Source: Candidatus Micrarchaeota archaeon
GTDB taxonomy: Archaea; Micrarchaeota; Micrarchaeia; Norongarragalinales; JAPLXB01
DNA length: 64,000 bases
Reading direction: 5' to 3'
Assembly (NCBI GenBank): GCA_026396285.1
Contig: JAPLXB010000022.1
Location: forward strand, 9,506 to 73,505
This document shows positions 8,848 through 59,808 of the stretch, in pieces. Made by a program: the position numbers and the translations under genes. The notes beneath the pieces were generated by a model that was given only the letters and a program-made list of their open reading frames with translations, made no database searches and was not told where the DNA came from. Numbering within the stretch: position 1 is the first letter of the stretch; every line of letters starts with the position of its first letter.

Positions 8848-8868
8848 CTTGATATAAAAACCTTTCTG
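8848..8868 (-). promoter_or_regulatory. Candidate BRE/TATA promoter of the rRNA operon
   Basis: The minus strand reads GAAAGGTTTTTATATC, a purine-rich BRE-like element followed by TTTTTATAT. It lies about 270 nt upstream of the 16S 5' end. No other strong TATA sits between the upstream gene and the 16S. Confidence 0.3.
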
Positions 8869-8928
8869 CACGCTTTTTGACCGCCGGAAAGGCCGTTTTT
8901 GAAGAAAAGCAAAGGTGGCGGCCTCGGT

Positions 8929-36904: not shown

Positions 36905-37085
36905 TGGGCGTCTCCTCCGCGGGCACCAAAACCCCTTGATTGTCTGCTGCCCGGCGATTGAGTCGGCGAGCCTCTGCGGCTCTTTTAATATTCGCGCTGC
37001 CTTGATTAAAAAAGCGACTGCTTTGCAGCGGAGCCGGCGGGCCTGCCCGTCCTCCGGTCTGCCGCGTGCGGCGGGGGTAGCGGGA

Positions 37086-43877: not shown

Positions 43878-44812
43878 GGGGATTCCTTTACTCCATCGCG
43901 CTCCTGCTATTCATCATTCCAATAGTGTTTTTCATAAGCAACTACTTCGCCATCGCGTCCGCAAACGACTACGAGGCAACAATAGGCATCCGGGGCAGCG
44001 AATTCGCGTCGTTCGTCAATTCAATCTCATCGGACTTGCCGCGCGCCCTCCTCATAAGCGGCCGCAACTCTGTTGCTTCGGCGGTGTCCAGCGTTACCGG
44101 GACCGGCGCGCCGCTTGACGACGCGGCCCTGCGGCTCGAGGAACTGGCGCTTAACGGGACGCTGTACGGCCACGCCGCCATGAACGCTTCCCTCTCGCGG
44201 TGGGCGCAGCGCGTGCAGGAAATCGGGCGCGCCCGCGGGTTTGAAACGCGGATGGTCTTCGAATCGCTGAATGCCAGGCAGCTGGATTCGTTCAGCCTCG
44301 AGTTTTCAGCAACCGTTTCAATAAACATTAGCGACCGGGTCTCGAGCATGAACGTTTTCAGGACGCGGCATGAGACTGCACTGCTGCCAATAAACGGCTT
44401 TGAAGACCCGCTCTATGCGCTTGAAACAAACGGCATAATGCACCGCGTCATAAGCGAGGCCAACGAGACAGTCTATGGCGTAGCGGGAGTCGACCGCGCA
44501 ATAGCACAAAAGTATTACCTGCCTGCCGGCGATGGGGCAAGCTTCCTTGACCGCCTCGAGGGCGCGACCCAGGTTTCTGAAAAATACGCGAACCTTTCCC
44601 AACAGCCAATAGGGCTGGAGACTTTCGTGGACGTGCAGGAACTGCTCGACAACGGCCTTGAAATAAAGCAGGACCGGACTGTGGTGGACCACCTTTACTT
44701 CAACGAAACCGCCCCTCCAGGTTATGCGGTGAACGGCTCGCAATACCCCTTGTTCAGGATAGATGCGGAGCACGCCGCCCTATATGGCGTGAACGGCTCG
44801 CTCGCAGGCTGA
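43868..44812 (+). CDS. N-terminally anchored extracytoplasmic protein (314 aa), prepilin-like N-terminus
   Basis: The ATG overlaps the upstream stop (ATGGGTGTGA). MGVRGFLYSIALLLFIIPIVFFISNYFAIAS then a soluble domain. The longer ORF-track start at 43658 is judged a spurious extension. Confidence 0.45.
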   Translation: MGVRGFLYSIALLLFIIPIVFFISNYFAIASANDYEATIGIRGSEFASFVNSISSDLPRALLISGRNSVASAVSSVTGTGAPLDDAALRLEELALNGTLYGHAAMNASLSRWAQRVQEIGRARGFETRMVFESLNARQLDSFSLEFSATVSINISDRVSSMNVFRTRHETALLPINGFEDPLYALETNGIMHRVISEANETVYGVAGVDRAIAQKYYLPAGDGASFLDRLEGATQVSEKYANLSQQPIGLETFVDVQELLDNGLEIKQDRTVVDHLYFNETAPPGYAVNGSQYPLFRIDAEHAALYGVNGSLAG

Positions 44813-44818: not shown

Positions 44819-44834
44819 TTATTAAAACCGGTTT
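44819..44834 (+). promoter_or_regulatory. TATA-like element with palindrome (TTATTAAAACCGGTTT) upstream of the wHTH/ATPase gene pair
   Basis: AT-rich box centred about 25-30 nt before the TTG/ATG start at 44846-44855. The same ATTAAAACCGGTTT 14-mer recurs at 59781. Confidence 0.35.
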
Positions 44835-44845
44835 GAATAATTCCC

Positions 44846-45559
44846 TTGATTGAAATGGCTGCTGACGAAAACATTGAGACAGTCATTGACCGCTTGGTCG
44901 ATTTCGTGAAATTAAAAGGCAGGGTCAGCGCGGTCGAGGCCGGGCGGGCGCTTGGCATGAGTTCCGGCCAAGTCGAGGGCATTGCCCGGCTGCTTGAGGA
45001 CAACGGGCTCGTACAAGTGCATTACACCCTTATTGGCACGGAACTCGCCGCGGTTGGAAGGGATTTGAAGAAAAAAGAGGGGGAAAAAAGCCGTGCAAAC
45101 GAGCCGGGCGCCGTGGAGGCGTACAAGGACTTCGAATCCTTCGTCAAGGAAAGCGAGGACATTTTCGAGTTCCTCAAGGAAGAGGTCTTGAAAAAAATGA
45201 CTGCCGCCGAGTCCCTGCTGGACCGGCTGGAAAAAGAGAAACTGGACGAAAACGACAAGACCGCGGTCAGGAAGGAACTCCGCCGGGTGACAAGCACCCT
45301 CAACAACTTCGAACCCACTCTCCAAAAAATCGTGCACGGGGAAAAGGAACTTAGGAAGCGCATAAGGGAAATCAGCAAGAGGACGGCCGCTGCCGAGAGA
45401 AGTAAACCCGGGATTTGGGACGGCATCAGGGACTTTGTTGCAAAATTTAAGCGCCGGAAGAAGGGGAAAATTCCCGCTCCAAGCGCTTCTCCGAAGTCGG
45501 AGAAGCGCAAAAAGCTTTTGGAACGACTCAGCCTTTCCCGCAAAAGGGTGCTGAAATGA
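44846..45559 (+). CDS. Cytoplasmic wHTH-like plus coiled-coil protein, translationally coupled to the filament ATPase
   Basis: 237 aa. The N-terminal roughly 70 aa (VIDRLVDFVKLKGRVSAVEAGRALGMSSGQVEGIARLLEDNGLVQV) looks like a winged helix. A charged coiled coil follows. Its stop overlaps the ATPase start (ATGA). Confidence 0.45.
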   Translation: MIEMAADENIETVIDRLVDFVKLKGRVSAVEAGRALGMSSGQVEGIARLLEDNGLVQVHYTLIGTELAAVGRDLKKKEGEKSRANEPGAVEAYKDFESFVKESEDIFEFLKEEVLKKMTAAESLLDRLEKEKLDENDKTAVRKELRRVTSTLNNFEPTLQKIVHGEKELRKRIREISKRTAAAERSKPGIWDGIRDFVAKFKRRKKGKIPAPSASPKSEKRKKLLERLSLSRKRVLK

Positions 45560-47058
45560 AAGTGCTTGCAAAATACGTCATCCAAAGCGAGAACGTGCCG
45601 GCAGAGGTTACCATCGCCCAGCGCGAAGAAGAGTACATAAACACCTACGAACTCAAGCACGCGAAGGTTATGGAGGCAACGAACGTCGTCCTTAATTTCC
45701 TGAAGGAGAAAATCATTGAAGGCGTCGACATCAGGATTTCCGAAATAATGGATCCGCGCGAGGCCGAGCGCGTAAAGGAAAAAATAATCCCAACGGCCCA
45801 CGAACTCGTCAGGAAGGAACTGCCGGGCGTGAACAGGGACGAGGAAGACATCCTAGTAGGGCGGCTTGTCCAGGAAATGCTCGGACTAGGCGAAATGGAA
45901 CTCCTCCTCGCAGACGACGAGCTTGAGGAGATAGTCGTCAATTCTTCAAAAGAGCCAATCTACGTTTATCACAAGAAGTTCGGCTGGCTCAAGACCAACG
46001 TATCAGTCACGTCAGAGGAGCAGATTCACAACTACGCTTCCATCATCGGGAGAAAAGTCGGGAAACAAATCACTAACCTCAACCCGCTCATGGACGCGCG
46101 GCTCCTCAGCGGAAGCAGGGTCAATGCCACGCTGTTCCCCATCTCCTCAAAGGGCAACGGTTTCACGATAAGAAAATTTGCGAAAGACCCGTGGACCATA
46201 ATCAACTTCATCAACCCCAAGATAAACACCCTCAACGCAGAAACCGCCGCCGTAATCTGGCAGGCGGTGCAGTACGAAATGAACATAATCGTTGGCGGCG
46301 GCACCGCTTCTGGAAAAACCTCTTTCCTAAACGCCATACTTGCATTCTGCCCGCCCAACCAGAGGATTGTCTCAATAGAGGACACGCGCGAACTCGTGCT
46401 CCCCGACTTCCTCCACTGGACCCCGCTCGTCACCAGGGAACCGAACCCGGAGGGCAAGGGCGGGGTGGAAATGCTCGACTTGATGATAAACTCGCTCCGC
46501 ATGCGGCCCGACCGGATAGTGCTGGGCGAAATCAGGCGGCAGCGCGACGCAGAAGTGTTGTTCGAGGCAATGCACACGGGCCACGCCGTATGCGGGACCC
46601 TTCACGCGGATGACGCGATGCAGGTCAAGTCGCGGCTCACGAGCCCGCCCATAAACCTGCCGGAGGAAATGCTGGGCGCCCTTCAACTCACCGCAGTCCA
46701 GTACCGCCAGAGGAGGACCGGCATCAGGAGGACGTATGAAATCGCCGAATTCATGCCCGAGGGGAAGACGATGGGCATAAACACCGTTTACAAGTGGGAC
46801 CCGAAGAGCGACAGGCTGGAAAAGGTCGGGGAGGGCCTGCGCCTCATCAGCGAGCTGTCAATGCACACTGGCATGAGCATGAAGGAGATGCGCGAGGATC
46901 TGGATGACAAGAAGGACGTCCTCAACTACATGAGCGAACACCAGATTGCCTCGGTCAACGAGGTTGGAAAGGTCGTCGCGTCCTATTACCGCGACGGGGG
47001 ACGCGTGACAGAAGGAGTCCGCAAGAAAACGCCGCCCCAGAAACTCTTCGGCCGGTGA
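45556..47058 (+). CDS. Type IV filament/secretion ATPase, FlaI/TadA/GspE family (module 1)
   Basis: 500 aa. Walker A GGGTASGKTS. An Asp box. Walker B VLGEIR-type. A His box (MHTGHAV). The N-terminal domain resembles archaeal FlaI/PilB. Confidence 0.85.
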   Translation: MKVLAKYVIQSENVPAEVTIAQREEEYINTYELKHAKVMEATNVVLNFLKEKIIEGVDIRISEIMDPREAERVKEKIIPTAHELVRKELPGVNRDEEDILVGRLVQEMLGLGEMELLLADDELEEIVVNSSKEPIYVYHKKFGWLKTNVSVTSEEQIHNYASIIGRKVGKQITNLNPLMDARLLSGSRVNATLFPISSKGNGFTIRKFAKDPWTIINFINPKINTLNAETAAVIWQAVQYEMNIIVGGGTASGKTSFLNAILAFCPPNQRIVSIEDTRELVLPDFLHWTPLVTREPNPEGKGGVEMLDLMINSLRMRPDRIVLGEIRRQRDAEVLFEAMHTGHAVCGTLHADDAMQVKSRLTSPPINLPEEMLGALQLTAVQYRQRRTGIRRTYEIAEFMPEGKTMGINTVYKWDPKSDRLEKVGEGLRLISELSMHTGMSMKEMREDLDDKKDVLNYMSEHQIASVNEVGKVVASYYRDGGRVTEGVRKKTPPQKLFGR

Positions 47059-47061
47059 AGC

Positions 47062-47937
47062 ATGATGAAGCCAGCGGTTCCATTCAGCCTCATTCCCCCC
47101 AGGGCGTTGTTCGCCGCGGGAAAAAAATACGCGGCGCTCGGCATCCAATTGACACGCGCCTTTTCCGAACTGAAGACTAACCTCGCCCAGGCGGAAATGG
47201 AAATTGCGGCAGCGGAGTACGCCGCGGCTTCCCTTGTTTCAGCGGCGCTCAACACCGCATTCATCCTCATCCTCATACTGTTCTTCGGCTACCTCGCGTC
47301 GGCAAACGTCCTGACGGCGGCACTGGCCCTTGCACTGGTCACCGGCGCAAGCTCGTTCCTGACCGCCGTATACTACCCGAAAATAATCGCCCTCCGCCGC
47401 AAAAGAAAACTGGAGGACAACCTTGTTCCGGCGGTGCGCCAGCTCGTTATAGAACTCAAGTCGGGGGTGCCGTTGTTCGAGGCCATGACGAGCGTTTGCG
47501 ACGACTACGGCGAAGTGTCGGAAGAGTTCAAAAAAATAGTCAAGAAAATAAACGCCGGCGAGGCCGAAATAGACGTGCTCGGCGACGCGAGCCGCCGACT
47601 GCCGTCAGTGCAGTTCCAGAAAGTCATCTGGCAGATATCAAACGCCCTGAAAGTCGGGTCGGACGTGAGCAACGCGCTTGAAGCAATACTCGAGGACTTG
47701 ACCGCCGAGAAAATAAACGAAATCAAGAGATACTCCCAGGAGCTTTCGCCATGGACAATGGTTTACATGATGACTGCAGTCATACTCCCCTCGCTCGGAA
47801 TCACTCTCGGGATAGTCATACTGTCGTTCCTGAGCGTCTCGGTTCCCAGGATGATATTCGCGGTGGCGATCGTCTTCCTCGTCATCTTCCAGTTGTTTTT
47901 CATGAACTTCCTTGGAACGCGACGGCCCGCGATATGA
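47062..47937 (+). CDS. TadB/TadC(FlaJ)-like polytopic membrane platform protein, single T2SS-F domain
   Basis: 291 aa. A cytoplasmic helical domain between TM1 and TM2 (VPAVRQLVIELKSGVPLFEAM...) is typical of the GspF/TadC fold. Confidence 0.65.
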   Translation: MMKPAVPFSLIPPRALFAAGKKYAALGIQLTRAFSELKTNLAQAEMEIAAAEYAAASLVSAALNTAFILILILFFGYLASANVLTAALALALVTGASSFLTAVYYPKIIALRRKRKLEDNLVPAVRQLVIELKSGVPLFEAMTSVCDDYGEVSEEFKKIVKKINAGEAEIDVLGDASRRLPSVQFQKVIWQISNALKVGSDVSNALEAILEDLTAEKINEIKRYSQELSPWTMVYMMTAVILPSLGITLGIVILSFLSVSVPRMIFAVAIVFLVIFQLFFMNFLGTRRPAI

Positions 47938-48990
47938 GTGATTGAATTGTTTGAAAAAATATACTACCAAACTGCCGAAATATTCCCGCCTTCCGCGGTG
48001 GAGAAAACCAGGGAGCTCCTGCAGCAGGGCGGAATAGAAAAAATAAGCCCGAAGGTGTATCTTGGACTCGGCACATACCTTTCAACCGCGCTCGCCCTCA
48101 TTGCCTTCTTCCTGGCCCCCATTTTCGTTCCCGGCCAGCATCCTGCCGCATACGTCGGAATAGCCGTGGCCGTCCAACTCCTCGCCGGCATACTCTTTTA
48201 CCTGAACCTGACAATGACCGCGGAAAACAGGGCTGAAAAAATAGAGGCAATGCTTCCCGAAATGCTCCAGATAATTTCCGCAAACATACGGGCGGGAATG
48301 ACCCTGGAAAACGCGGTCTGGTCCTCAGCAAGGGAAGAATTCGGGCCGCTGAGGGACGAGATAAAGAAGGTTTCGGCAGACGCGTACCGCGGAATACCCA
48401 TACAAGATGGAATGCTGAACATGAGCAAGAGAATACGGTCAACCCTCGCCGAAAGGGCGATAAAACTCATAGTGGAAGGGATTGCAAAAGGGGGGGAAAT
48501 GACCCGCCTACTTGACCGCGTGGCATGGGACCTCAAAAGCGCCCAGACGCTGCGCAAGGAAATAACGACGGCCACCCTGACTTACTCGCTTTTCATTGTT
48601 TTCGCCGCAGTCATCGTAAGCCCCCTCCTGTTCTCCGTCTCCACCTACTATTCGGAAATGAATGAAAAAATAGCGGAAAAAACCACTGCCTCGCCAGAAC
48701 TCAACATGTCCAAATCAGTGAGGGGCGGCCCGATGACCTATTCCGCCATCCCCATCATGGGCTTCGGGCAACGGCCAAAAGACATGATAACCTCGAACGA
48801 AATAAAGCTCTTCGCGTACGCGGCAATAATAATCACAACCGCTTTCAGCGCCCTCCTGCTCGGAGTGATTCGCTACGGGAAGCCCAGCAAGGGCCTGAAA
48901 TTCCTCGTCTTGTTCGTCGTCCTCGGGCTCGCCGTGTTTTCGCTCGCCCACGATTTCCTGACAGCCGCCTTCTCAAGCATCATGCGATAA
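47938..48990 (+). CDS. TadB/TadC(FlaJ)-like membrane platform protein, second single-domain paralogue
   Basis: 350 aa. A GTG start lies immediately after the TGA of the previous gene. Same T2SS-F-like layout (LPEMLQIISANIRAGMTLENAV...). Confidence 0.65.
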   Translation: MIELFEKIYYQTAEIFPPSAVEKTRELLQQGGIEKISPKVYLGLGTYLSTALALIAFFLAPIFVPGQHPAAYVGIAVAVQLLAGILFYLNLTMTAENRAEKIEAMLPEMLQIISANIRAGMTLENAVWSSAREEFGPLRDEIKKVSADAYRGIPIQDGMLNMSKRIRSTLAERAIKLIVEGIAKGGEMTRLLDRVAWDLKSAQTLRKEITTATLTYSLFIVFAAVIVSPLLFSVSTYYSEMNEKIAEKTTASPELNMSKSVRGGPMTYSAIPIMGFGQRPKDMITSNEIKLFAYAAIIITTAFSALLLGVIRYGKPSKGLKFLVLFVVLGLAVFSLAHDFLTAAFSSIMR

Positions 48991-49063
48991 GGCACGCTTT
49001 TACCATGCCCCTCCGCCGCGCGATTAAAACGATTTTTATACCAAACGCGCTTTCCCTTTAATC

Positions 49064-49861
49064 ATGGCAAAGAAAAAGCAAACGCCACTGCACAGGGCCC
49101 GCGCAAGCCGCGCCGCGCCGGCAGAACACGAACGCCGCGAAAAGACTCCCGCCGAAGCCGCTCCTGCAGGGGAGTCGCCGAAGGTCAAGTCGGGGATTCC
49201 GGGTTTGGACAGGCTCATTGGCGGCGGCTTCGAGAGGGAAAGCGTGGTGCTCGTCACCGGCGACGCGGGAAGCGGGAAAAGCACATTGGCCATGCAGTTC
49301 CTGTGCAACGGCGCCAGCCAATACGACGAGCCGGGCATACTCATAACGTTCGAGGAACGCCGCGAGGACATAATCAAGCACATGAAGTCCTACGGCTGGG
49401 ACATCGAGGCATTGGAAAAGGAGAAGAAAATAAAGATACTTGAATACCCCCCGCACGAAGTGGAGCGCTTCATTTCAGAAGGCGAAATAATCCGCGACCT
49501 CATATCAGACCTCAAGGCGAAACGCATGGTGATAGACTCCATGACTTCCTTCGCGCTCGTTTTCGACAACGAGTACAAGATGAGGCTAGGGGTGCTGAAG
49601 GCGATTGATTCCCTGAAAAAATGGGGGTGCACTGCGCTCCTGATTTCCGAAGGAAGCGTGACCGAACAAGGCGAGGTCAGGGACCGTTTCGGCATAGAAT
49701 ACCTCGTCGACGGCACGATATACCTGTATAACAAGCGCGTGCGCGACTACCGCCAGAAACTCGTTGAAATCGTGGAACTCAAGGGCGTCAAACACGACAA
49801 CGCAATCCACCAGCTCGTCTTCGGCAGGAAGGGAATAAGCGTAGAGGAAAGATCCGCATGA
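49064..49861 (+). CDS. KaiC/FlaH-like RecA-superfamily ATPase
   Basis: 265 aa. GIPGLDRLIGGGFERESVVLVTGDAGSGKSTLAMQFL (KaiC-type Walker A) and Walker B MVIDSMT. A Lys/Arg/Ala-rich N-terminal tail. A TATA-like element sits 23 nt upstream of the ATG. Confidence 0.7.
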   Translation: MAKKKQTPLHRARASRAAPAEHERREKTPAEAAPAGESPKVKSGIPGLDRLIGGGFERESVVLVTGDAGSGKSTLAMQFLCNGASQYDEPGILITFEERREDIIKHMKSYGWDIEALEKEKKIKILEYPPHEVERFISEGEIIRDLISDLKAKRMVIDSMTSFALVFDNEYKMRLGVLKAIDSLKKWGCTALLISEGSVTEQGEVRDRFGIEYLVDGTIYLYNKRVRDYRQKLVEIVELKGVKHDNAIHQLVFGRKGISVEERSA

Positions 49862-50958
49862 AGGCGCAGACAGCGGTCGAACTCCTAGTCATCCTCGCGG
49901 CCGGCCTCATTGTGATAGGCATACTCTTCGTCTCCAGTTACGAGCGCCTCGCGGGCTCCCAGGCTTCGCTCTCGGTTTCGCAGGCCCAGGCGGCCGCAAA
50001 CGACTTGGCCAACGCGGCGGACACGGTGTGGTTCGAGGGCGCCGGCGCGAAGAAAAACGTTTACATCGAACTGCCGAACGCAATAAACTACTCGCTGGTT
50101 TCCGGAAACACCGTGCTGTTCAGGGTCGCCGTCCCATCCGGCCTCACCGACGCGGTCGCGAAATCAACTGCGCCCCTGTTTGGCTCAGTGACCGCGAAAC
50201 CGGGGGCCCAACTCGTGAGCGTCTACGCCACCGAGTCCGCCGTGGTAATCGGCATGCAGTCCCTCGCGGCAGACCCCGCACTCCTACTCACCCAGGCATT
50301 CGCGTCCAACGCCACTCAAAACGTGCAAAAAACATTCAACGCCTCCAACAACGGAAACTCTTCGCTCGACGTTACCGCCGCCCTAGCATGGAGCAGCGGC
50401 GGCGTGAATGTCTCGTTCGCCAACCCCTCCGACTCCTACTTCTCTCTCGCGCCCGGCGCCAGCCGCTCGATAACCCTGAACGAGGCCGTTGGCGCCAACG
50501 TCATGGGCTCGTTTTCGGGAAGCGTCCTGCTGAACGCAAGCAACGGCGAGGAGGCCACAGTGTACGTGGTCGTGGAAGTGTCGCCGCCTTACTGCCCATC
50601 GTGCCCCGGCTGCCCGCCCTGCGGAGGCGGCGGGAACGAGACGGTCTCCTGGTTCGAGATAACCACGTGCCCCGATGCCTCGTGCACGAGGGAACAGCTG
50701 GTCTTCGACGCCGGCAACGACTCGCAGGTCGACATATTCAGCACCGGGTCGTGGGACAGGAACTCCCTCCTCACGATAAACGTGTCCTACCCCAACGGCA
50801 CGAGCGTGCCCGGCTACCCGAAAGACGTCAGCACGACCTTCATCGGAAGCTTTTCCGACTACTGGGTCTTCGCCCCAGGCGCGCCAAACGGAACATACAC
50901 CGTGCGCGTAAACCAAAGCCCGTACTCCAATTACACGGCGTTCAACGTGACATGCTGA
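49858..50958 (+). CDS. Class III signal peptide protein (366 aa) with C-terminal Cys/Pro cluster
   Basis: MKAQTAVELLVILAAGLIVIGILFV (K-A|Q, E at +5). The ATG overlaps the kaiC-like stop. C-terminal PPYCPSCPGCPPCGGGGNE. Confidence 0.55.
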   Translation: MKAQTAVELLVILAAGLIVIGILFVSSYERLAGSQASLSVSQAQAAANDLANAADTVWFEGAGAKKNVYIELPNAINYSLVSGNTVLFRVAVPSGLTDAVAKSTAPLFGSVTAKPGAQLVSVYATESAVVIGMQSLAADPALLLTQAFASNATQNVQKTFNASNNGNSSLDVTAALAWSSGGVNVSFANPSDSYFSLAPGASRSITLNEAVGANVMGSFSGSVLLNASNGEEATVYVVVEVSPPYCPSCPGCPPCGGGGNETVSWFEITTCPDASCTREQLVFDAGNDSQVDIFSTGSWDRNSLLTINVSYPNGTSVPGYPKDVSTTFIGSFSDYWVFAPGAPNGTYTVRVNQSPYSNYTAFNVTC

Positions 50959-50968
50959 GGAATTTGAA

Positions 50969-53128
50969 ATGAAAAACCGCACCATCCTCGTCTTCGCAGC
51001 CATTCTCGCGCTCCAAGCCTCCGCGGCGATATCGGTGGCGATGGTCTCCCCACCCGCCAACCAGACCACCAACCTCACCCAGGGAAACTTCTTCAACATG
51101 ACCGTAAACGTAACCTGTTCCGGCACCCCGTGCGGAAACGTCAGCATGGTCTCGCAGCACAACTCGAGCGGCGAAATCGGCGGCGGCGAAAACGGGCCCC
51201 TCGCCATATCCGCGCCCACCATCGTCAACGACTACGCTGCAGTCACCGCCAACGCCTTTGCGGGCGCGATGACCATCCAGGTGGACTCGGCGGCCGCGTT
51301 CTCCGCTGGAAACGAGATACTCGTGACGCAGGTCCAGAACGCGAGCGCAGGGGTTGCGGGCGCGCACGAGTTCGCCACCCTCCTCGGAATATTGGGCAAC
51401 ACGCTCTACCTTACAATCCCCCTCGCCAACAGTTACTACACTTCCTCGCAAAACTCCACCTCTGCCACCGCCGCCCAAGCAGTCCGCGTTCCCCACTACA
51501 CCACCGTCAACGTCACCGCCACAGGGTCAATAATCGCCAAGCCATGGGACGGCTACACCGGAGGCGTCATCGCGTTCAAGGCCAACTCAACCGTTACCGT
51601 AACCGGCTCGATAAACGCGACCGGCACAGGATTCAGGGGCGGCAGCGGAGTCTCTGGCGCCCAGACAATCACTTTCGCATACCAAGGCGAGTCATTCACC
51701 GGCACCGGCGCCTCATCCAACCTCTCCAACAAAGGCGGCGGCGGGGGCGGCTTCAACAACTTCGAAGTATTCTCCGGAATGAGCGGCGCATCTGGCGGAG
51801 GAGGCGGCTACTCTTCAACAGGCACAAACGGTTACCAATCGCCCGAGGGCCAGCCCGGCGGCATCAACGGCTCGACATATGGCCTCCCCGCGCTTTCGCT
51901 CCTCATGCTCGGGTCTGGCGGGGGCGGCGGAGGCACTGACAACAACGGCAGCATCGGCAACGGCACCGACGGCGCCACAGGAGGAGGAATAATTTACGTT
52001 TCAGCGGACAAGGTGGTCGTGACCGGCAGCGTACTCTCCAACGGCGCCAACAGCCAAGGAAGCACCTCCACGTACGCCGGCTCAGGAGGCGCAGGCGCAG
52101 GCGGCTCAACCCGCCTGAGGGCAAACAACCTCACAATCGGAAACCGTTTGGTCAACGCGAGCGGCGGAACCGGCGGCTGCAGCGCCTCGCCCTACTGCGG
52201 AGGCAACGGCTCCACTGGAAGGATAAGGCTGGATTACGCCGCCCTCAGCGGTTCTTCGGGGCAACCGTCCGGCTACAACGGGTCCGCTCCCCTCCCGCCG
52301 GGTTACGTAAACATATCAAACGCTTCCGGGAACTACCCGTTCTACACCACCTCGCCCCAGCCGCAGTACTGCACGCTTTCCGCCGGCCAGTCATGCCTAG
52401 TGACCTGGCAAGTCAATACAACCGCCCAAGTCGCGACAATCTACCTACTCCGCGGCTACGCGCGGAGCACCACCCAATCCAACGCCTCAACCCCCTCCAC
52501 GGTAGTGGTTTACGCCAGGCCAGGGCCCAGGGGCGTCGCCACCTCCAAAAGCGCCTACACTGTCTGCGGCAAGCTCTACTTCCGCATCTCCGCCTTCGGC
52601 CCGTCCGGAAACCCGGTGAACGCGCCCATAAACTACAAGATAATCGACGCCGCAGCCGCGGTCCAACAAGACCGGAACGTGACAACGCCCGGCGGTTCCT
52701 ACTATGGAACATGTCCGCTCTCAAACCCGCTGGCGCGCGGCGAATGGACCATAAAAGCGATGAGTGCATTCACACGCGGCCTCGGCTCGTTCATAGCCGG
52801 CGCAGGCAACGCCGAGCCGTGGAGGACTGACCTCGCGCTAGACGGCAACAAAGTCAAGTACCGGCGCGGCGAAAACCTCGCCGCAACCGCCACAGTCTAT
52901 TCAATGGACGGCCTCGGACTCGAAAGCCTATTGGCCGCAAACCGGCTGAAGATGTTCATCGACTCGACGGACGTCACCGCCACCGCCTCCGACCTGGGCC
53001 AAGGCAGTTACTCGTTCACCTACAACACATCCTCGCTGGGCGGGGCAGTCCACTCGGTGCGCGCCTTCGCAAACACGACCGCGGGAGTCCAAGTCACAAC
53101 AGTGAAGTCGTTCTATCTCTTCGGGTGA
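50969..53128 (+). CDS. Secreted Gly-rich repeat protein (Sec-type signal peptide)
   Basis: 719 aa. MKNRTILVFAAILALQASAAISVA signal. Long GGxGGxG tracts and N-x-S/T sequons. No class III motif. Confidence 0.5.
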   Translation: MKNRTILVFAAILALQASAAISVAMVSPPANQTTNLTQGNFFNMTVNVTCSGTPCGNVSMVSQHNSSGEIGGGENGPLAISAPTIVNDYAAVTANAFAGAMTIQVDSAAAFSAGNEILVTQVQNASAGVAGAHEFATLLGILGNTLYLTIPLANSYYTSSQNSTSATAAQAVRVPHYTTVNVTATGSIIAKPWDGYTGGVIAFKANSTVTVTGSINATGTGFRGGSGVSGAQTITFAYQGESFTGTGASSNLSNKGGGGGGFNNFEVFSGMSGASGGGGGYSSTGTNGYQSPEGQPGGINGSTYGLPALSLLMLGSGGGGGGTDNNGSIGNGTDGATGGGIIYVSADKVVVTGSVLSNGANSQGSTSTYAGSGGAGAGGSTRLRANNLTIGNRLVNASGGTGGCSASPYCGGNGSTGRIRLDYAALSGSSGQPSGYNGSAPLPPGYVNISNASGNYPFYTTSPQPQYCTLSAGQSCLVTWQVNTTAQVATIYLLRGYARSTTQSNASTPSTVVVYARPGPRGVATSKSAYTVCGKLYFRISAFGPSGNPVNAPINYKIIDAAAAVQQDRNVTTPGGSYYGTCPLSNPLARGEWTIKAMSAFTRGLGSFIAGAGNAEPWRTDLALDGNKVKYRRGENLAATATVYSMDGLGLESLLAANRLKMFIDSTDVTATASDLGQGSYSFTYNTSSLGGAVHSVRAFANTTAGVQVTTVKSFYLFG

Positions 53129-53133
53129 ATTGA

Positions 53134-53532
53134 GTGAAGGCTCAAGTGGGAATGGACTTGCTCATCGCTTCAATAATACTATTCCTGGTGTTTCTATCCG
53201 TCTTCAGTTTCTACTCGCTGCAATTCCAGGCATCCGAAGAGACAAAACAGCGGGCCAGCGCCTCCCGCATCGCCGAACTAATCGCATGGAACGCCAACGG
53301 CATACTCCAATCAATGAACGGCACCACGACAGTAATCAGAATCCCGCCGCTCCTCGCAACCGGCGACAACTACTCCATACTGTTCGTCACGCGCCAAGTC
53401 ATCGTTTCCTGGAAAAACAAGTCTGAATCGAGGCCGCTGCTCACCCGCGCGGTATCCGGCGCCGGTGCGGCCGCGCCCGGAAAAAACGTTTCAATAACTA
53501 ATGCCGACGGGGGAATCGCCTTTGCATCCTAG
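53134..53532 (+). CDS. Class III signal peptide protein (132 aa)
   Basis: MKAQVGMDLLIASIILFLVFLSVF (K-A|Q, Asp at +5). Confidence 0.5.
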   Translation: MKAQVGMDLLIASIILFLVFLSVFSFYSLQFQASEETKQRASASRIAELIAWNANGILQSMNGTTTVIRIPPLLATGDNYSILFVTRQVIVSWKNKSESRPLLTRAVSGAGAAAPGKNVSITNADGGIAFAS

Positions 53533-54094
53533 GACGCCAAACCAAGCGGAACAACTGGCCCGCCCGACAGCCACCGGCCGGCAATCAAGGGGGCAGTTGT
53601 TCAGCATAGACATACTTGTGGCAGTCACAATCGCGCTATTCCTCTTCATAACAGCCACAACCTTGTCCACGAGAGTGATGAACGTGCTTGGAATATCGGA
53701 ACAGGAGATTGAACTCAATGCCGCGGCAGAAGCCGCCGCCGCCCAGCTTGCGGCATCACCGGGCAACCCCCTCAACTGGGACGCATTGTCATTCAGCGAC
53801 GCGTCAGTGAACTCAATCGGCCTCGCAGAGTCAAGGAACGTGCTTGCCCCCGCCAAGGTAGGCGCCTTTTTCGCCCTCGCCTCAAACCAGACCGCCCTGC
53901 CGCTCGTCAAGAAAATGCTAGGCGTCAGCCGCCCTGGCTACGGTTTTTCAGTCAGAATCTACAACCAGACCGGCTCGCTGGTAAACGGCTTCAGCACTGG
54001 CGCGGGAACAGGAAAGCCCGCGACCGTCGCCGAACGAATCGGAGTCCTCAACGGGTCCCTCGTGAGACTCAGCGTAGGTGTTTGGATTGAATGA
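53522..54094 (+). CDS. Class III signal peptide protein (start uncertain, TTG at 53522)
   Basis: ...SRGQLFSIDILVAVTIALFLFITATTL (R-G|Q, Asp at +5). It overlaps the upstream gene. The ORF-track ATG at 53501 gives an atypically long leader. Confidence 0.4.
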   Translation: MHPRTPNQAEQLARPTATGRQSRGQLFSIDILVAVTIALFLFITATTLSTRVMNVLGISEQEIELNAAAEAAAAQLAASPGNPLNWDALSFSDASVNSIGLAESRNVLAPAKVGAFFALASNQTALPLVKKMLGVSRPGYGFSVRIYNQTGSLVNGFSTGAGTGKPATVAERIGVLNGSLVRLSVGVWIE

Positions 54095-54518
54095 AAACCG
54101 GAGAAAGGGGTTTTTCTTCACGCTGGACGCGCTGCTTGCAGTAGCGTTTTCAATCGCCATATTCATCCTCGTAGTCAAAACGCTTGAAACCGCCCAAACA
54201 ACCGCCTCTGCCGACGTCGGCCTCGCGAGACTGGGCCAGGACCTGCTCGCCGGCATGGAAAAAAACGGCGCACTGGCTGAAGCCGTGCTGACCTCCTCCG
54301 GCGCCATCCTATCCGCCTCAACAGGAGTGCTTCCACCGGACATGTGCGGAAAAATAACCGTGAAAAAAAGCCCGGGCAACGCAGTCATCCTCGCGAACAG
54401 CCCCTCCTGCCGGTGCACGGAACGCAGGGTCGCGGCCTCCCGAAGCTTCGCCACCGCCGCAACCGGTTTTGACGAGTACGTTGCCTCAATAGAATTGTGC
54501 AGGAGGAAAAACACATGA
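54078..54518 (+). CDS. Class III signal peptide protein (146 aa)
   Basis: MFGLNENRRKGFFFTLDALLAVAFSIAIFILVV (K-G|F, Asp at +5). Confidence 0.5.
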   Translation: MFGLNENRRKGFFFTLDALLAVAFSIAIFILVVKTLETAQTTASADVGLARLGQDLLAGMEKNGALAEAVLTSSGAILSASTGVLPPDMCGKITVKKSPGNAVILANSPSCRCTERRVAASRSFATAATGFDEYVASIELCRRKNT

Positions 54519-55372
54519 CACAAAAAGGCTTCGTGTTCGCACTCTTCTTCCTCTCCTTCTTCACGCTCCTCCTAGGCGTCGCAGTCTACTACGACGCCTC
54601 GGTCACCGCCTGGGAAAGGACGGTGCTGGACGCGCGGCGCGTGGAAAAAGCCTCGTTCGCGGCAGACGACGTCGCATGGGACTTGAAGAAATTCTACGGC
54701 CTCGACACCGTGGCAATAGCCAAGACCCCGACAAACTCCAGCATAACAATTTCATCCGCCATCCCATCCAATTTCTCCGACCCCGCCAGCGAATTGAGCG
54801 CCTACAAGCAGTTCCTCCAAGGCGCGTACAAAAACCAGGCGCATTCAAACGCCTCGCTCGCAGCCACCGGCAACCACCTTTTTTTCACGGGCTTGAACGC
54901 GGACTACTCCTGGAATAACGAGAGCCGCAACGCAGTGAGGATGGCTGGCGGAAACGCGTTCGCCTACACCCTGCGGGGGGCGCTGAGCGGCTACTGCGAC
55001 TTCCCGGCCTGCCCGGCAAACATCACGGGCTGGTCTTGGATCGGGTGCGGGGGAAACGCCATTGCCATAACCCTTGACATCAGGGACGCGGGAAACACGC
55101 CAGCCACGGTTTCCGGCGCAACAACCGGCTGCGTCTCGCCTTCGTCCACCAACGGGTTCTTCGTCCCGGCAGGCGCGGGAACGCTTTACGTAAGCGCCGG
55201 AAGCGTTTCAGGAACCTCTCCGGCAATCGCGCTGAACGTCACGCAGTCCCTCTCGTTCTCGTTCACGCTCGAATCCAATTTCTCCTCTGCACCGGACACG
55301 CGCGCAGTCCTACCGGCCTCGCTTTCCGTCGACGGCCAGAACTACGCGTGGCTGGCGGTTGATGAAAAATGA
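54515..55372 (+). CDS. Class III signal peptide protein (about 285 aa)
   Basis: MTQKGFVFALFFLSFFTLLLGV (K-G|F). The start is taken at the second Met of the ORF-track ORF (54497). Confidence 0.5.
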   Translation: MTQKGFVFALFFLSFFTLLLGVAVYYDASVTAWERTVLDARRVEKASFAADDVAWDLKKFYGLDTVAIAKTPTNSSITISSAIPSNFSDPASELSAYKQFLQGAYKNQAHSNASLAATGNHLFFTGLNADYSWNNESRNAVRMAGGNAFAYTLRGALSGYCDFPACPANITGWSWIGCGGNAIAITLDIRDAGNTPATVSGATTGCVSPSSTNGFFVPAGAGTLYVSAGSVSGTSPAIALNVTQSLSFSFTLESNFSSAPDTRAVLPASLSVDGQNYAWLAVDEK

Positions 55373-55410
55373 ATATATTAAGGGAACGACTAATCAACGC
55401 GGGGACTTGA

Positions 55411-57723
55411 ATGAAGAAAAAAACCGCTGCAAAGAAGGGAACGGCCGGAAAACAGGCGGCCAAAGCGCGCGCGGCCAGCGGCGCCACCCGCGCAAAGAGC
55501 CACGCGCCGGCCCATCCGGCCACCCACGCGCACCACGTAAAGAAAATACGCAAGGAAATCCACCGGGCGCGCAAGGAACTCGATAAGGCGCGTAGGAAAA
55601 TCCTCGAGGCCGCGGCGACGGCAAAAGCAGCGGCGCAAGTTCCAGTACCCGCGCCGGCACCGCTTCCGGCTCCCGCACCCAAACCAGCGCAAAAAGCCGG
55701 GGGATCCCCCATCGACGCGCTCAAGAAAATATCGTTAGGAATATCCTTCGGCAAAAAGACCGCGCCAGCGCCATCGGCCGCTCCAACGCCGGCACCCGCG
55801 GCCGCTCCTGTTGCGGAAGCGAAGCCATCCGCGGAACCAAAACCGGCCGAAGCACCTGCGCCGTCCACGGCCCCAAAACCCGGGAAAAAGGCCGCAGCCG
55901 AAAAACAGCCCAAGACGGCCGCTGTCCCTGCGCCGGAAGAGGCAACTGAACCGAAAAAAGGCGTGCTGTTCGTCGAGTCCCCGGTCGACCGGATGTGCTA
56001 CGCGCTTGAAAACGCTCCGGGCAACGAGATGATGCTGGAGGCGCTTGCGGCTGAGACAGGCGTGGACGTCGCGTCGCTTGAAAGAATAGGGAAAATCCTC
56101 CAGGAAGAAGACGTATGCGAAATGATTTACCCAGTCAACGTGTTCTCGAAACCATCCATACGGCTGGTTGCAAAACAGCAGAAAAAAGCCCTCCGGCACT
56201 TCGAGGGCGACAAGCTCCTCTCCTCGTATTCGCTTGAGGAAAGCGGGGTCCCGGCCAACGTTGAAATCTGGGAGGCCAGAAGCGAAGCAAGGCCAGTGTA
56301 CTCGATAGTCGTTTCCGCCGCCGGGCCGTACACGGAAATGTTCCTCAATTACCTGCGGGACGCGATGGCGCGCGAAGTCCCCGTCCTCACCGAGGAAATC
56401 ACCGACCCAAAAAAACTGGCCAAACTCAAGGGACGCTTCTACGCCGCATCCCAAGCCAAACTCGCCGAGGAACTCGGCAGCCTCGTTGAAGACAAGAGGA
56501 ACATGCTCGCAGGCATGCTGCTCCACCGCATGTACGGCCTCGGCGAAATAGAGTTGTTGATGGCGGACAACTGGCTCGAGGAAATAGGAATCAACAGCGC
56601 AACCGAACCCATCGGCGTATACCACAAGAAGTTCGGGTGGCTCAAGACGACGATGCGCATCCCTTCCGAGGAGGAGATATACAATTACGCTTCCCAAATC
56701 GGGAGAAAAGCCGGCAGGGACATAACGCTCCTGAACCCGCTCATGGACGCGAACCTCCTGACGGGCGACCGCGTCGCGGCCACGCTCTTCCCCATTTCCT
56801 CGTCGGGGAACACGATAACCATCCGCAGGTTCGCCCGCGTCCCCTGGACGATAACAGACTTCATCAGCCCCGCGCTCAACACGATGTCCGTCGAAATGGC
56901 TGCGTTCCTGTGGCTGTGCGTCCAGTACGAGATAAACATCATGGTGGCCGGCGGCACCGCGTCAGGAAAGACGTCGGCACTCAACACTATATCGGCGCTC
57001 ACGCCCGCTTCCCAAAGGATAGTGAGCGTCGAAGACACGCGGGAACTCAACCTCCCCAAATACCTCAGATGGAACTGGATACCGCTGACCACGCGGGGCC
57101 CCAACCCCGAAGGAAAGGGCGAAGTGGAAATGCTGGACCTCACCGTCGCCGCGCTCAGGATGAGGCCGGACCGCGTCATAGTCGGCGAAGTCAGGAGAAA
57201 ACGCGAGGCAGAAGTCCTGTTCGAAGCCATGCACACCGGCCACGCAGTCTATTCCACGCTGCACGCGGACAACGCCGTCCAAGCCATCCGCAGGCTAAAC
57301 GAGGCGCCGATAGAAATCCCCAAGACCGAATTGGATGCGCTTCACTTGATGATGGTCCAGTACCGCGACCGCCGCAAAGGCATACGGAGAACATATGAGA
57401 TAACCGAACTCACCAGCGCATCAGGCGGCGAAGTCGTCCTCAACCCGTTATACAAGTGGAGGCCCCGCGACGACACGTTCGAAAAACGCAACGACAGCCT
57501 CAGGGTTTTCGGAGAACTCAACATGCACACCGGCATGACCGTCGACGAAATAAAAAGCGACATCGGCGAAAAACAAAAAGTGCTCGAATGGATGCTGGAA
57601 AACAAGGTCACGGACATAGACAAGGTCGGTGAAGTAATGAACATCTATTACAAGGAACCCGACTCAGTCGTGTCGGCGGCGAAAAAAAAGACGCCGGTAG
57701 CCGAACTTCTTGGTGAAAAATGA
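55411..57723 (+). CDS. Type IV filament ATPase, FlaI/TadA family (module 2) with roughly 170-aa Lys/Ala/Pro-rich N-terminal extension and fused wHTH-like segment
   Basis: 770 aa. Walker A GGTASGKTS and a His box MHTGHAV. Residues 1-170 are a low-complexity basic AKP-rich region. Residues about 185-260 (VDRMCYALENAPGNEMMLEALAAETGVDVASLERIGKILQEEDV) resemble the N-domain of the stand-alone protein at 44846. Confidence 0.85.
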   Translation: MKKKTAAKKGTAGKQAAKARAASGATRAKSHAPAHPATHAHHVKKIRKEIHRARKELDKARRKILEAAATAKAAAQVPVPAPAPLPAPAPKPAQKAGGSPIDALKKISLGISFGKKTAPAPSAAPTPAPAAAPVAEAKPSAEPKPAEAPAPSTAPKPGKKAAAEKQPKTAAVPAPEEATEPKKGVLFVESPVDRMCYALENAPGNEMMLEALAAETGVDVASLERIGKILQEEDVCEMIYPVNVFSKPSIRLVAKQQKKALRHFEGDKLLSSYSLEESGVPANVEIWEARSEARPVYSIVVSAAGPYTEMFLNYLRDAMAREVPVLTEEITDPKKLAKLKGRFYAASQAKLAEELGSLVEDKRNMLAGMLLHRMYGLGEIELLMADNWLEEIGINSATEPIGVYHKKFGWLKTTMRIPSEEEIYNYASQIGRKAGRDITLLNPLMDANLLTGDRVAATLFPISSSGNTITIRRFARVPWTITDFISPALNTMSVEMAAFLWLCVQYEINIMVAGGTASGKTSALNTISALTPASQRIVSVEDTRELNLPKYLRWNWIPLTTRGPNPEGKGEVEMLDLTVAALRMRPDRVIVGEVRRKREAEVLFEAMHTGHAVYSTLHADNAVQAIRRLNEAPIEIPKTELDALHLMMVQYRDRRKGIRRTYEITELTSASGGEVVLNPLYKWRPRDDTFEKRNDSLRVFGELNMHTGMTVDEIKSDIGEKQKVLEWMLENKVTDIDKVGEVMNIYYKEPDSVVSAAKKKTPVAELLGEK

Positions 57724-58661
57724 TGGAGGTAGCCATATTTCTCTTCATCATCCCGAAAACCCTTGAAGCCCCCCTGGCGAGGAGGCTCCGCGGACTCGGC
57801 GGAAAACTCGGCTCCCTCGTCCCCGGCCTTGGATACGACCTGAGGGAACTCGGAGAAGCGGACGCGGGAAAATACGTTGCCCGCGCCCTCCTGAACTCGG
57901 TCCTCTGGGGAATCCTCCTCACGCTCCTCATATCTTTCTTCCTATTCACCACAGGAAGGCTCAAGCCCGAAATATTGGCGCAAACATTCTCAAACAATGC
58001 GGCGCTGTCATACGCCGCCGCCGGAATCCTCCCGGCAGTAGGCAGCGGAATATTCGTCACCGCCCTCCTCCTCGCGTTCCTCCTATACTACCCGCACATA
58101 CTTGCCAGGAAACTCGCGGAAACAGTGGACAAGGACTTGATATTCGCGCTCAAGGACCTCCAACTCCAGATCGGCTCAGGAGTCAGCCTGTTCAACGCCA
58201 TGGTCAACGTCTCCAAAGCCGGCTACGGCAACGTGTCCAAGCAGTTTGACTCGGTCGTAAAGGACATTTCCGCAGGCGAGGCAGAGGACGCGGCGCTTGA
58301 AAAAATGGCTGCACACACCGAATCCGAGTTCATGAAAAGGACGGTGTGGCAGATGATCACCGCCCTCCGCGGCGGCGCAAGCCTGGAAGGCGCTCTCTCC
58401 AGCATAATATCAGTGCTGAAAAGGGACCAGGCGTCCAGGATAAGAACATTCATCCATGAACTCAACCTCTGGGCCCTTGTCTACATGATAGTGGCAGTGG
58501 CGGTGCCGGGCCTCGGCTCAACGGTCCTTATCGTAATATCCGCCTTCGGAGGAATAGTGGTCACCGAAATGACTTACGTCTTCGCCCTAGTCGCCTGCTT
58601 CATCGCCGAAATAGTCATAATCGGTTTCATAAAATCAAGGAGGCCAATCGTCCACCTGTAA
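57720..58661 (+). CDS. TadB/TadC(FlaJ)-like membrane platform protein (module 2, first)
   Basis: 313 aa. The start overlaps the ATPase stop. T2SS-F-like cytoplasmic domain (LIFALKDLQLQIGSGVSLFNAM...). Confidence 0.65.
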   Translation: MMEVAIFLFIIPKTLEAPLARRLRGLGGKLGSLVPGLGYDLRELGEADAGKYVARALLNSVLWGILLTLLISFFLFTTGRLKPEILAQTFSNNAALSYAAAGILPAVGSGIFVTALLLAFLLYYPHILARKLAETVDKDLIFALKDLQLQIGSGVSLFNAMVNVSKAGYGNVSKQFDSVVKDISAGEAEDAALEKMAAHTESEFMKRTVWQMITALRGGASLEGALSSIISVLKRDQASRIRTFIHELNLWALVYMIVAVAVPGLGSTVLIVISAFGGIVVTEMTYVFALVACFIAEIVIIGFIKSRRPIVHL

Positions 58662-58718
58662 AAGCCGGCTTGAAAGAAATTGCGCTGCAAAAACTTCGCA
58701 AAAAAAAGGTCTTCAACA

Positions 58719-59735
58719 ATGAAAAAATCCATCCTGCCGATAACCGGGACTTACTACGTTATTGTAGACCTCCTGCCGCACGCGTACCGCACCGGCCTGA
58801 AGAAAAGGCTCGCGCACGCGGGAATCACGATGGACCTGGAACTATGGCTGGGCCCAATCATACTCTCCTCGCTGGTAATAGGACTCCTTTGCCTCGCCGT
58901 CGCATGGGGCCTTCTGGACGTCTTCGACCCCGTCCTCCTCGCCGCATCATTCCTCGCCGGCTTACTGATAATCATCATTGCAGCATACACCCTCCTCGCC
59001 ACCCAGATAGATGAAAGGAAGGCGCGCGTGGAAAAAGTCCTCCCCGACGCGCTGCACATCATGGCCGCCAACATACGCACCGGCGCGCCGCCAATGATCG
59101 CGTTGCGCATGACCGCGCGCCCCGAATTCGGGCCCCTAGAGGAGGAAATAAAGTACGTTACCACAAAGTCGCTGGGCACCGAGTCCTTCACCGACGCCCT
59201 CAACGAAATGTCGCACCGAATCCCCTCAGACATCTTCGCCAGAACAGTGTCGCTGATCGCGGCCAGCCTCAAGGCGGGCGGGAAACTGGCGCAACTCCTT
59301 GAAAGCGTGGCGGAAGACATCAGGGAAACCCAGGAACTGAAAGCGGAATTGGTGACGAACAGCAACCTCTACATACTGTTCATCGCCTTCACAGTCGTAA
59401 TCGGCACGCCGCTCCTGCTCGCGGTCTCCGTGCACTTCACGACCATGGTTGCAGACCTCCAAAAAGCCCCAGTCGCCGCGTCGCTGTCTGAGGAAGTCGG
59501 AGTCAACAGCATCGGCCTCATCATCAGCACGCCTTTTTCAGTGACTTTCGTGGAAAACGCGGGCTACTTTGTGATACTCATGACCAACATCTTGGCCGGG
59601 GTGCTCATGGGCGCCATCCGGGAGGGCAAGGAAACGAGCGGGTTGAAGTACGTTCCGTTCATGTTGATAATCTCGTTCATAGTCTACTTCATCGTGAAGG
59701 ACGTCATACTGCAGTTCCTGAGGTCTGCGGCCTGA
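58719..59735 (+). CDS. TadB/TadC(FlaJ)-like membrane platform protein (module 2, second)
   Basis: About 339 aa from MKKSILPITG. LPDALHIMAANIRTGAPPMIAL. Same layout as 47938. Confidence 0.6.
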   Translation: MKKSILPITGTYYVIVDLLPHAYRTGLKKRLAHAGITMDLELWLGPIILSSLVIGLLCLAVAWGLLDVFDPVLLAASFLAGLLIIIIAAYTLLATQIDERKARVEKVLPDALHIMAANIRTGAPPMIALRMTARPEFGPLEEEIKYVTTKSLGTESFTDALNEMSHRIPSDIFARTVSLIAASLKAGGKLAQLLESVAEDIRETQELKAELVTNSNLYILFIAFTVVIGTPLLLAVSVHFTTMVADLQKAPVAASLSEEVGVNSIGLIISTPFSVTFVENAGYFVILMTNILAGVLMGAIREGKETSGLKYVPFMLIISFIVYFIVKDVILQFLRSAA

Positions 59736-59780
59736 AACCGCCCGGCAAACAAAGAAAGGCTTAAAAAACCCGGAATTGTA

Positions 59781-59795
59781 ATTAAAACCGGTTTT
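59781..59795 (+). promoter_or_regulatory. TATA-like element with palindrome (ATTAAAACCGGTTTT) upstream of the pilin gene 59809
   Basis: About 20 nt before the ATG. It shares the 14-mer ATTAAAACCGGTTT with 44821-44834. Confidence 0.35.
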
Positions 59796-59808
59796 GGTGA
59801 TGGAATAA

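Follow-up and report, generated by a model that had tools for sequence, protein, structure and literature searches.

A 14-nucleotide word shared by two promoters of a Micrarchaeota type IV pilus-like locus: core-promoter sequence or operator

Two promoters of a type IV pilus-like gene cluster share the 14-mer ATTAAAACCGGTTT in a 64-kb stretch of contig JAPLXB010000022.1 (hereafter the window, W), which holds an archaeal rRNA operon and comes from an uncultured Candidatus Micrarchaeota archaeon. Copy 1 lies before an operon that opens with the gene of a winged helix-turn-helix (wHTH) protein followed by a secretion ATPase, and copy 2 before the first pilin gene. Our analysis favours, with a probability of about 0.55, a reading in which the 14-mer is ordinary core-promoter sequence rather than a dedicated operator and the identity of its two copies is coincidental. 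The word would combine a common TATA variant, ATTAAAAC, with six of the seven bases between the TATA box and a -10-like hexamer. Copy 1 would serve the wHTH-ATPase-TadB/C operon as its internal promoter (ATTAAAAC-cggtttg-AATAAT), with a start near 44848 and a leader of about 6 nt. Copy 2 would have arisen in this lineage only, inside a conserved pilin promoter (TTAAAAAAC-N7-TGTAAT, P1) that yields a Shine-Dalgarno (SD)-led mRNA, where it would either merely overlie the P1 start or form a nested, leaderless promoter (P2) that starts at the ATG and adds to pilin expression. That both copies have the same six post-TATA bases and a dyad symmetry of A-tract, CCGG and T-tract would be a coincidence, aided by a local rule by which spacers are G+C-rich and begin with CCG or GCG.

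Results

The window contains exactly two copies of the 14-mer, both on the forward strand (Table 1), so the original prediction of a word shared by two promoters with no third copy in 64 kb stands. Its placement close before start codons had also been read correctly: copy 1 lies 21–34 nt ahead of the ATG at 44855 and copy 2 15–28 nt ahead of the ATG at 59809, and as 14-bp direct repeats they are spaced 14,960 bp apart. The related word ATTAAAACGATTTT is found 5' of the KaiC-like gene, as had been described. The palindromic core AAACCGGTTT occurs four times in the window, not twice, and two of these copies fall in coding sequence, one in a tRNA-intron endonuclease gene and the other in a long open reading frame (ORF) that has no Pfam domain and is called as a gene on ORF evidence alone. 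At copy 1 AAACCGGTTT adjoins the TATA box and at copy 2 the longer palindrome AAAACCGGTTTT covers the predicted P1 start, which places a dyad over the core promoter in both cases. A scan of GTDB-representative contigs for the 14-mer was uninformative, giving scattered single matches in unrelated bacteria and archaea among the matches listed. The word TAAAAGCCGGCTTGAA at 58659 was considered as a third, degenerate copy and rejected, since it is where a T2SSF gene ends with its stop codon and the next gene follows on. A terminator or RNA-hairpin reading of AAAACCGGTTTT was also rejected, given that four A-U pairs enclosing CCGG make no stable hairpin and that the start codon follows directly.

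ATTAAAAC, which makes up eight of the 14 bases, recurs as a TATA box would: all five of its copies in the window are intergenic and lie upstream of forward-strand genes, in gene orientation (genes at 10230, 44855, 49064, 59809 and 61041), and TTAAAA(A)C is used at further promoters of the window. By geometry alone it is also an AT-rich octamer some 25–30 bp upstream of a start or leaderless ATG, its centre lying 30.5 nt before the ATG at 44855 and 24.5 nt before that at 59809. In copy 1 the layout continues as ATTAAAAC-cggtttg-AATAAT-13 nt-ATG. The 234-amino-acid (aa) protein encoded downstream is identical to an NCBI protein that carries an NTY90_ locus tag, and it has two moderately close homologues (50% and 48% identity). 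Upstream of the 50%-identical orthologue in L001/L002 (L numbers denote related loci from other genomes) stands ATTATTAAAACCGGGGGCCGGGTAAATCCCCTTGATTGCATG, in which the TATA box and CCGG are kept as ATTAAAACCGG together with a TTGATTG near the start, while the right half of the dyad is lost. The distant family member in L013, with TTATTAAGTCGGCGTTGATTGATTG...ATG, keeps ATTAAGTCGG and TTGATTG, and the wHTH gene of L003 is preceded by TTTTAAAGCCGAGG and a longer, SD-led leader. The plan TATA-N6-9-nnTAAn-(11–15 nt)-ATG is found again at wHTH family genes in L134, L144, L161 and L162. Because the layout of copy 1 matches this recurring plan, transcription is predicted to start at about 44848–44849 with a leader of about 6 nt; in line with the original reading, the wHTH/ATPase operon has its promoter at copy 1 and its mRNA probably a very short leader. 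The database gene call of the L001 orthologue (protein P0002) is 15 codons too long at its 5' end and takes in the gene's own TATA box (L001 5599–5643), the conserved start being the ATG at L001 5644.

The pilin promoter was compared through orthologues of the preceding T2SSF gene: their contigs, together with the window, gave five upstream regions for alignment (W, L005, L008, L010 and L011). Three elements are conserved: a TATA box, GGCTT(A/T)AAAAC (TTAAAAAAC in W), 20 nt upstream of the 14-mer; (A/T)GTAA(T/C), 7–8 nt after the TATA box; and a GGTGA SD sequence 5–8 nt before the start codon in all five. The 14-mer is absent from the pilin promoters of L005, L008, L010 and L011, and the stretch from GTAAT to GGTGA differs in each genome (for example CCAAACGAACCG in L005 and GCGAGAAGGCATTC in L008). 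The TATA element of copy 1 is therefore kept in orthologues (L001/L002, L013) and that of copy 2 is not, the four pilin orthologues conserving the box 20 nt upstream. In clear leaderless promoters of related loci (L006 1902, L011 318, L146 3192, L013 17673) the hexamer ends 6–7 nt before the ATG, and this distance applied to P1 puts its predicted start at about 59789–59790, the centre of the dyad, with copy 2 spanning about -9 to +5. The conserved pilin mRNA is read as SD-led and not leaderless because GGTGA is conserved and GGTGA-type sites commonly precede genes in the window; the main pilin transcript is probably leadered. Since the conserved TATA box lies 20 nt upstream, copy 2 would either sit on the predicted P1 start or constitute a second, leaderless promoter. 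Such a lineage-specific P2 could take the well-formed layout ATTAAAAC-cggtttt-GGTGAT-7 nt-ATG, in which the hexamer-to-ATG distance of 7 nt falls within the 6–7 nt of the four leaderless promoters named above.

The original prediction had taken ATTAAAA as the TATA box of leaderless or short-leader transcripts. This agrees with our data insofar as ATTAAAA(C) is TATA-type sequence in this genome and copy 1 appears to have a short leader; it does not extend to the pilin gene, which conserves a different TATA box 20 nt upstream and is SD-led, or to the KaiC-like gene. At the latter the conserved TATA box is TTTTTATA(CC) (49033–49040), identical in L003, and not ATTAAAAC. Its centre lies about 27 nt before the ATG at 49064, which is a leaderless geometry. 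TTTTTATACC is kept in L003, whereas ATTAAAAC, directly upstream of the KaiC TATA box with a 4-nt overlap, is not.

In many Micrarchaeota loci the promoters of pilin and wHTH genes follow the plan TATA-N6-9-(A/G)GTAA(T/C). Its spacers are G+C-rich (for example gcggcgg, ccgcgag and tggtcgg) and those of the clade typically begin with CCG or GCG, which raises the chance that two spacers are identical. The pilin and wHTH/ATPase-operon promoters of many of these loci have in common the composite motif TTTAAAAC-N7-8-(A/G)GTAA(T/C), with about 35 matches in 346 kb, about half of them upstream of pilus genes. Sites include window 59761–59782, L005 11075, L008 2677, L010 1165, L011 318, 11079 and 11703, L013 14194, L142 9884 and 14672, L144 5957, L146 3192 and 9908, L160 14170 and L136 115. 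Housekeeping promoters in the window mostly do without the (A/G)GTAA(T/C) hexamer, which could be the -10 element of the clade in strong promoters or a pilus-specific cis-element. We found no literature on Micrarchaeota promoters or pilus regulation, and likewise no mapped Micrarchaeota start sites.

How unusual the shared word is depends on what is counted. The expectation of 0.01 occurrences holds for this single word and not for any repeated word. Exact direct repeats 14 nt or longer form 42 pairs in the window, and a second 14-mer, AAAACCGGTTTGAA, ties the wHTH promoter site itself (44824–44837) to a coding site (37695–37708) and is an internal control for the ease with which 14-nt identities arise here. 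Of perfect palindromes spanning 10 bp or more the window has 84, where shuffled sequence has about 66. What still sets the 14-mer apart is that both of its copies fall in promoters, which make up a small part of the window. When 28 upstream 60-mers are compared, the longest common words are 14 nt (the 14-mer pair), then 11 and then 9 nt. Markov null models trained on these upstream regions put the probability that any promoter pair shares at least 14 nt at 0.014, 0.02, 0.037 and 0.10 for orders 1 to 4, values that are conservative because the training data include the repeat. The distinctiveness of the 14-mer is thus weaker than it appears and goes only modestly beyond chance.

If a regulator encoded in the locus controlled both promoters, some motif, though perhaps a different one, would be expected to be common to the two in related genomes. 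In L003/L005 (one contig) the longest word common to the wHTH and pilin promoters is 6 nt, in L001/L008 (one Joint Genome Institute sample) it is 8 nt (TTAAAACC) and in L013 it is 6–8 nt; no palindrome is shared between both promoters in any of these three. A metagenome scan with the wHTH family alignment returned 29 further loci, 15 of them with enough flank. In these 15 the longest match of the 70 nt 5' of the wHTH gene to any other intergenic region measures 7–11 nt, the window alone reaching 14, and none of the 29 family genes is preceded by a visible dyad. Neither the candidate operator nor a co-varying equivalent is thus conserved at the corresponding promoters of the relatives. An 11-mer in L142 and a 10-mer in L012, both in pilin promoter regions, were considered as parallels and dismissed, being A-rich, at unrelated positions relative to the TATA box and of about chance frequency. 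GTDB-representative contigs scanned with an alignment of a 291-aa mid-locus protein gave 129 pattern matches, none of which is a relative.

The protein encoded at 44855 had been described as wHTH-like, which is right at the level of fold. A profile search of 1.8 billion representatives found 549 relatives at E ≤ 0.001. No Pfam family reaches its threshold, with weak matches scattered over several wHTH and coiled-coil families, and a sequence search of the PDB returned nothing significant. MarR_2, HTH_28 and FeoC match below the Pfam cut-offs. For MarR_2 the score is 17 bits where 27 are required, and a weak MarR match is seen in one of 81 family members, so that the protein does not reach the threshold of the MarR family (PF01047 / PF12802). 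An AlphaFold 2 (AF2) model from a single sequence, with a predicted local distance difference test score (pLDDT) of 48, was too poor for use. The model from an alignment of 81 sequences has a pLDDT of 84 and consists of an N-domain, H1-b1-H2-H3-b2-b3 (residues ~3–66), a helical hairpin (86–182) and a less confident basic tail. With Foldseek the N-domain matches RbkR, MarR and ArsR regulators, RbkR at E = 8e-4 to 8e-3 with a root mean square deviation of about 2 Å over 60–67 residues, and the protein-binding winged helices of ESCRT-II and PCI type match equally well. Across the family the winged-helix domain is acidic, with a mean net charge of -2.6, and the last 40 residues average +9. Two glutamates in the third ('recognition') helix are conserved, E41 in 79 and E48 in 68 of the 81 members. 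In all five contexts seen the wHTH gene directly precedes a T2SSE ATPase gene, with a 4-nt overlap in W, L002, L012 and L013/L014 and a 1-nt gap in L003; because of this constant order a role as stoichiometric or assembly partner of the ATPase fits at least as well as one as regulator. Archaeal pilus loci often carry their own diverse, uncharacterised regulators and KaiC or vWA accessories (PMC4858521), so that either role would be of a known kind. Family examples are window 44855–45559, L012 6001–6801, L013 10001–10783 and L134–L162, and the family may supply the DPANN pilus machinery with a component or adaptor that has escaped recognition.

Both copies of the 14-mer lie within the pilus-like cluster, which contains two modules of an ATPase and two T2SSF (TadB/C-like) genes, ATPase 1 belonging to the first (Table 1). 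The layout varies between loci: the window (44855–59735) and L003/L005 have two such modules with KaiC and pilin-like genes between them, and L013 (10001–14181) has a single module with pilins directly after it. In L003 a pair of genes for a 75-aa and a PIN-domain protein, probably a toxin-antitoxin pair, is inserted behind the KaiC-like gene (8383–8965). The gene of the 1189-aa vWA-domain protein in the cluster includes three tandem repeats of 117 nt (39 codons; 42030–42380) that are 62–73% identical.

Outside the cluster, a tRNA gene of 123 nt (31472–31594, forward strand) has a non-canonical insertion of about 50 nt behind the D-arm, and its anticodon loop CTTTTAA suggests tRNA-Lys(UUU). 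It was missed by ARAGORN and matched by Rfam at threshold over 31536–31594 only; the tRNA-intron endonuclease gene is close by. Both rRNA genes, on the minus strand, exceed their Rfam models (large subunit 3649 nt, 2803–6451, versus 2987 nt; small subunit 1611 nt, 6972–8582, versus 1478 nt), which suggests introns or large insertions in both.

Table 1. Positions of promoter elements, palindromes and genes in the window
Feature	Position	Strand	Remark
14-mer copy 1	44821–44834	+	TATA box ATTAAAAC (44821–44828) and six of seven spacer bases (cggtttg, 44829–44835)
Palindrome AAACCGGTTT at copy 1	44825–44834		10-bp perfect dyad adjoining the TATA box
AATAAT, -10-like proximal promoter hexamer	44836–44841	+	7 nt after the TATA box
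Conserved TTGATTG	44846–44852	+	kept in L001 and L013
14-mer copy 2	59781–59794	+	12-bp perfect palindrome AAAACCGGTTTT at 59784–59795
Pilin promoter P1 (predicted)	59761–59782	+	TATA box TTAAAAAAC (59761–59769), 7-nt spacer, TGTAAT (59777–59782); five-region alignment and composite-motif scan
GGTGAT	59796–59801	+	holds the pilin mRNA SD sequence GGTGA (59796–59800); could double as -10-like hexamer of P2
ATTAAAACGATTTT	49023–49036	+	directly 5' of the KaiC TATA box, 4-nt overlap
Coding copy of AAACCGGTTT	36237–36246		inside the tRNA-intron endonuclease gene (35753–36883, minus strand), codons K-T-G-F
Copy of AAACCGGTTT in ORF	37696–37705		inside a long forward-strand ORF (36675–38363, probable start near 37086), reads F-K-T-G-L
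Type IV pilus-like cluster, 22 kb		+	holds both 14-mer copies
Pilin-like genes and vWA protein	38388–44812		pilus cluster
Gene of the 234-aa protein	44855–45559	+	4-nt overlap with the ATPase gene
T2SSE-type secretion ATPase 1	45556–47058	+	Pfam PF00437, E = 3e-32
Two T2SSF genes, then KaiC-like ATPase	KaiC-like at 49064		after ATPase 1
Six pilin-like or unknown genes			between the KaiC-like ATPase and the second T2SSE ATPase
Second T2SSE ATPase and two T2SSF genes	ATPase at 55411
Pilin 1, 178 aa	59809–60345	+	class III signal peptide; Pfam PF04021, translation
Second pilin	60391–60792		class III signal peptide; translation

Discussion

Our results are best accommodated by a model in which the two copies of the 14-mer are built from promoter sequence common in this genome. 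Several points weigh against it. The pair is a clear outlier both among promoter pairs (14 nt versus 11 and 9) and among the 16 loci (14 versus at most 11), and its two copies belong to one functional locus, carry perfect dyads of 10 and 12 bp and lie on core promoter elements. Core promoter elements are where archaeal repressors bind. Together these points make pure coincidence uncomfortable, at a nominal P of about 0.004–0.04. It counts further against the model that both pilin promoters, P1 and P2, like the short leader of copy 1, are predictions from sequence; that P2 functions, and that no protein binds the dyad, is what we infer.

The same points are what would speak for AAACCGGTTT as an operator for a dimer of the winged-helix/coiled-coil 44855 protein, which would block TBP/TFB or RNA polymerase and thereby repress its own operon and co-control the pilin. 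Two promoters of one pilus locus have the identical 14-nt word and perfect dyads, extended to 12 bp at the pilin, both on core promoter elements and standing out from the other promoter pairs; the fold of the protein is a genuine winged helix, structurally closest to the DNA-binding regulators RbkR, MarR and ArsR, and is joined to a hairpin that could dimerise; and uncharacterised regulators are frequent in archaeal pilus loci (PMC4858521). We nevertheless consider this unlikely. The dyad is not kept 5' of the wHTH orthologues in L001, L003, L012 and L013 or of 25 further family members, nor at the four orthologous pilin promoters, and no substitute motif is common to both promoters in the three other genomes that have them or in the 15 family loci. 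The two copies also differ in position, one being TATA-proximal and the other on the start site, and the winged-helix domain is acidic (mean -2.6), with E41 (79/81) and E48 (68/81) in helix 3. The position of the gene directly before that of the ATPase in every context seen suggests a stoichiometric partner of the machinery. Of the claims made originally, that the palindrome is of the kind bound by a dimeric wHTH regulator is thus without comparative support, the dyad being conserved at neither promoter, and the operator idea is unsupported; that the 44855 protein is a candidate autoregulator which co-controls the pilin is likewise unsupported, given the lack of a common motif in three other genomes or 15 family loci, the acidic domain and the coupling to the ATPase. 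It is quite unlikely that the dyad is a recently evolved operator and the 44855 protein the first recognised transcription regulator of a DPANN pilus, founding a winged-helix/coiled-coil family of at least 549 relatives that precede pilus ATPase genes. Were this true, a regulator of the 44855 type could link assembly of the machinery to transcription of the pilin, for example through sequestration by the ATPase.

Co-expression without a classical repressor would be expected if the 14-mer marked a promoter class, its TATA box, CCGG and T-tract being read by a TBP or TFB paralogue or setting promoter strength. A TATA box followed by CC(C)G is indeed present at pilus-locus promoters in several genomes (TTAAAAAACCCG at W 59761 and the same in L005, TTTAAAACCCG in L008, ATTAAAACCGG in L001), and many archaeal pilus loci are reported to encode TFIIB homologues (PMC4858521). 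However, neither the T-tract nor the full dyad is conserved, G+C-rich post-TATA spacers also occur at unrelated promoters and the annotated part of the window shows no TFB or TBP gene, so we regard a promoter class as very unlikely. Hardly credible is a role for the 14-bp direct repeats as att-like sites or recombination scars around a mobile or duplicated pilus module. The repeats do flank a 15-kb gene block and the locus of L013 is shorter, with one ATPase module only, but the module missing there (KaiC to the second T2SSF pair) is not the part that the repeats flank, and L003/L005 have the same gene order without the repeat. There is no integrase or transposase between the repeats, the G+C content of the block resembles that of the rest of the window, 41 other repeats of at least 14 nt occur by chance, and no related genome was found in which a lone copy of the 14-mer marks an empty site.

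Micrarchaeota are host-dependent DPANN archaea whose pili are thought to mediate contact with the host, and to our knowledge nothing is known of the transcription of their pilus genes. If the core-promoter reading is right, its value is modest and lies in a first sketch of a promoter grammar for the clade, TTTAAAAC-N7-8-AGTAAT with leaderless and GGTGA-led mRNAs, and in the corrected promoter assignments of two genes, that of the pilin and the KaiC-like gene. Should the dyad prove a true operator, pilus regulation in an uncultured lineage would become open to testing, and a function could be proposed for a large protein family that has no annotation.

The archaeal core promoter, as described for Sulfolobus, haloarchaea and methanogens, comprises a TATA box about 25–30 bp upstream of the start, a B recognition element (BRE) and an AT-rich proximal element near -10. 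The promoters described here resemble it in having an AT-rich octamer that recurs before several genes and is spaced correctly for leaderless or short-leader starts, a second AT-rich hexamer 7–8 nt downstream and a TATA box kept in orthologous promoters (copy 1 and pilin P1). They differ in that no purine-rich BRE is evident upstream and in the unusually specific -10-like hexamer, (A/G)GTAA(T/C), of these Micrarchaeota pilus promoters. The 44855 protein for its part is reminiscent of archaeal pilus and archaella regulators (ArnR/ArnR1, the Lrs14-type AbfR1 and predicted locus-encoded ones; PMC4858521) as a small HTH-type protein encoded in or acting on a type IV pilus-like locus, and the role proposed for it, co-control of machinery and filament genes, is like theirs. 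However, ArnR contains a transmembrane domain and the gene of AbfR1 always lies outside the locus (PMC4858521), whereas the 44855 protein is soluble, with a coiled-coil hairpin and a basic tail, is encoded directly before the ATPase gene and has no conserved binding site. From MarR and ArsR repressors and Thermoplasma RbkR it is set apart by its acidic domain, the conserved glutamates in helix 3 and the lack of a Pfam match at cut-off, yet it shares with them the fold of the N-domain, and its candidate site, a perfect dyad that overlaps a promoter, resembles their palindromic operators.

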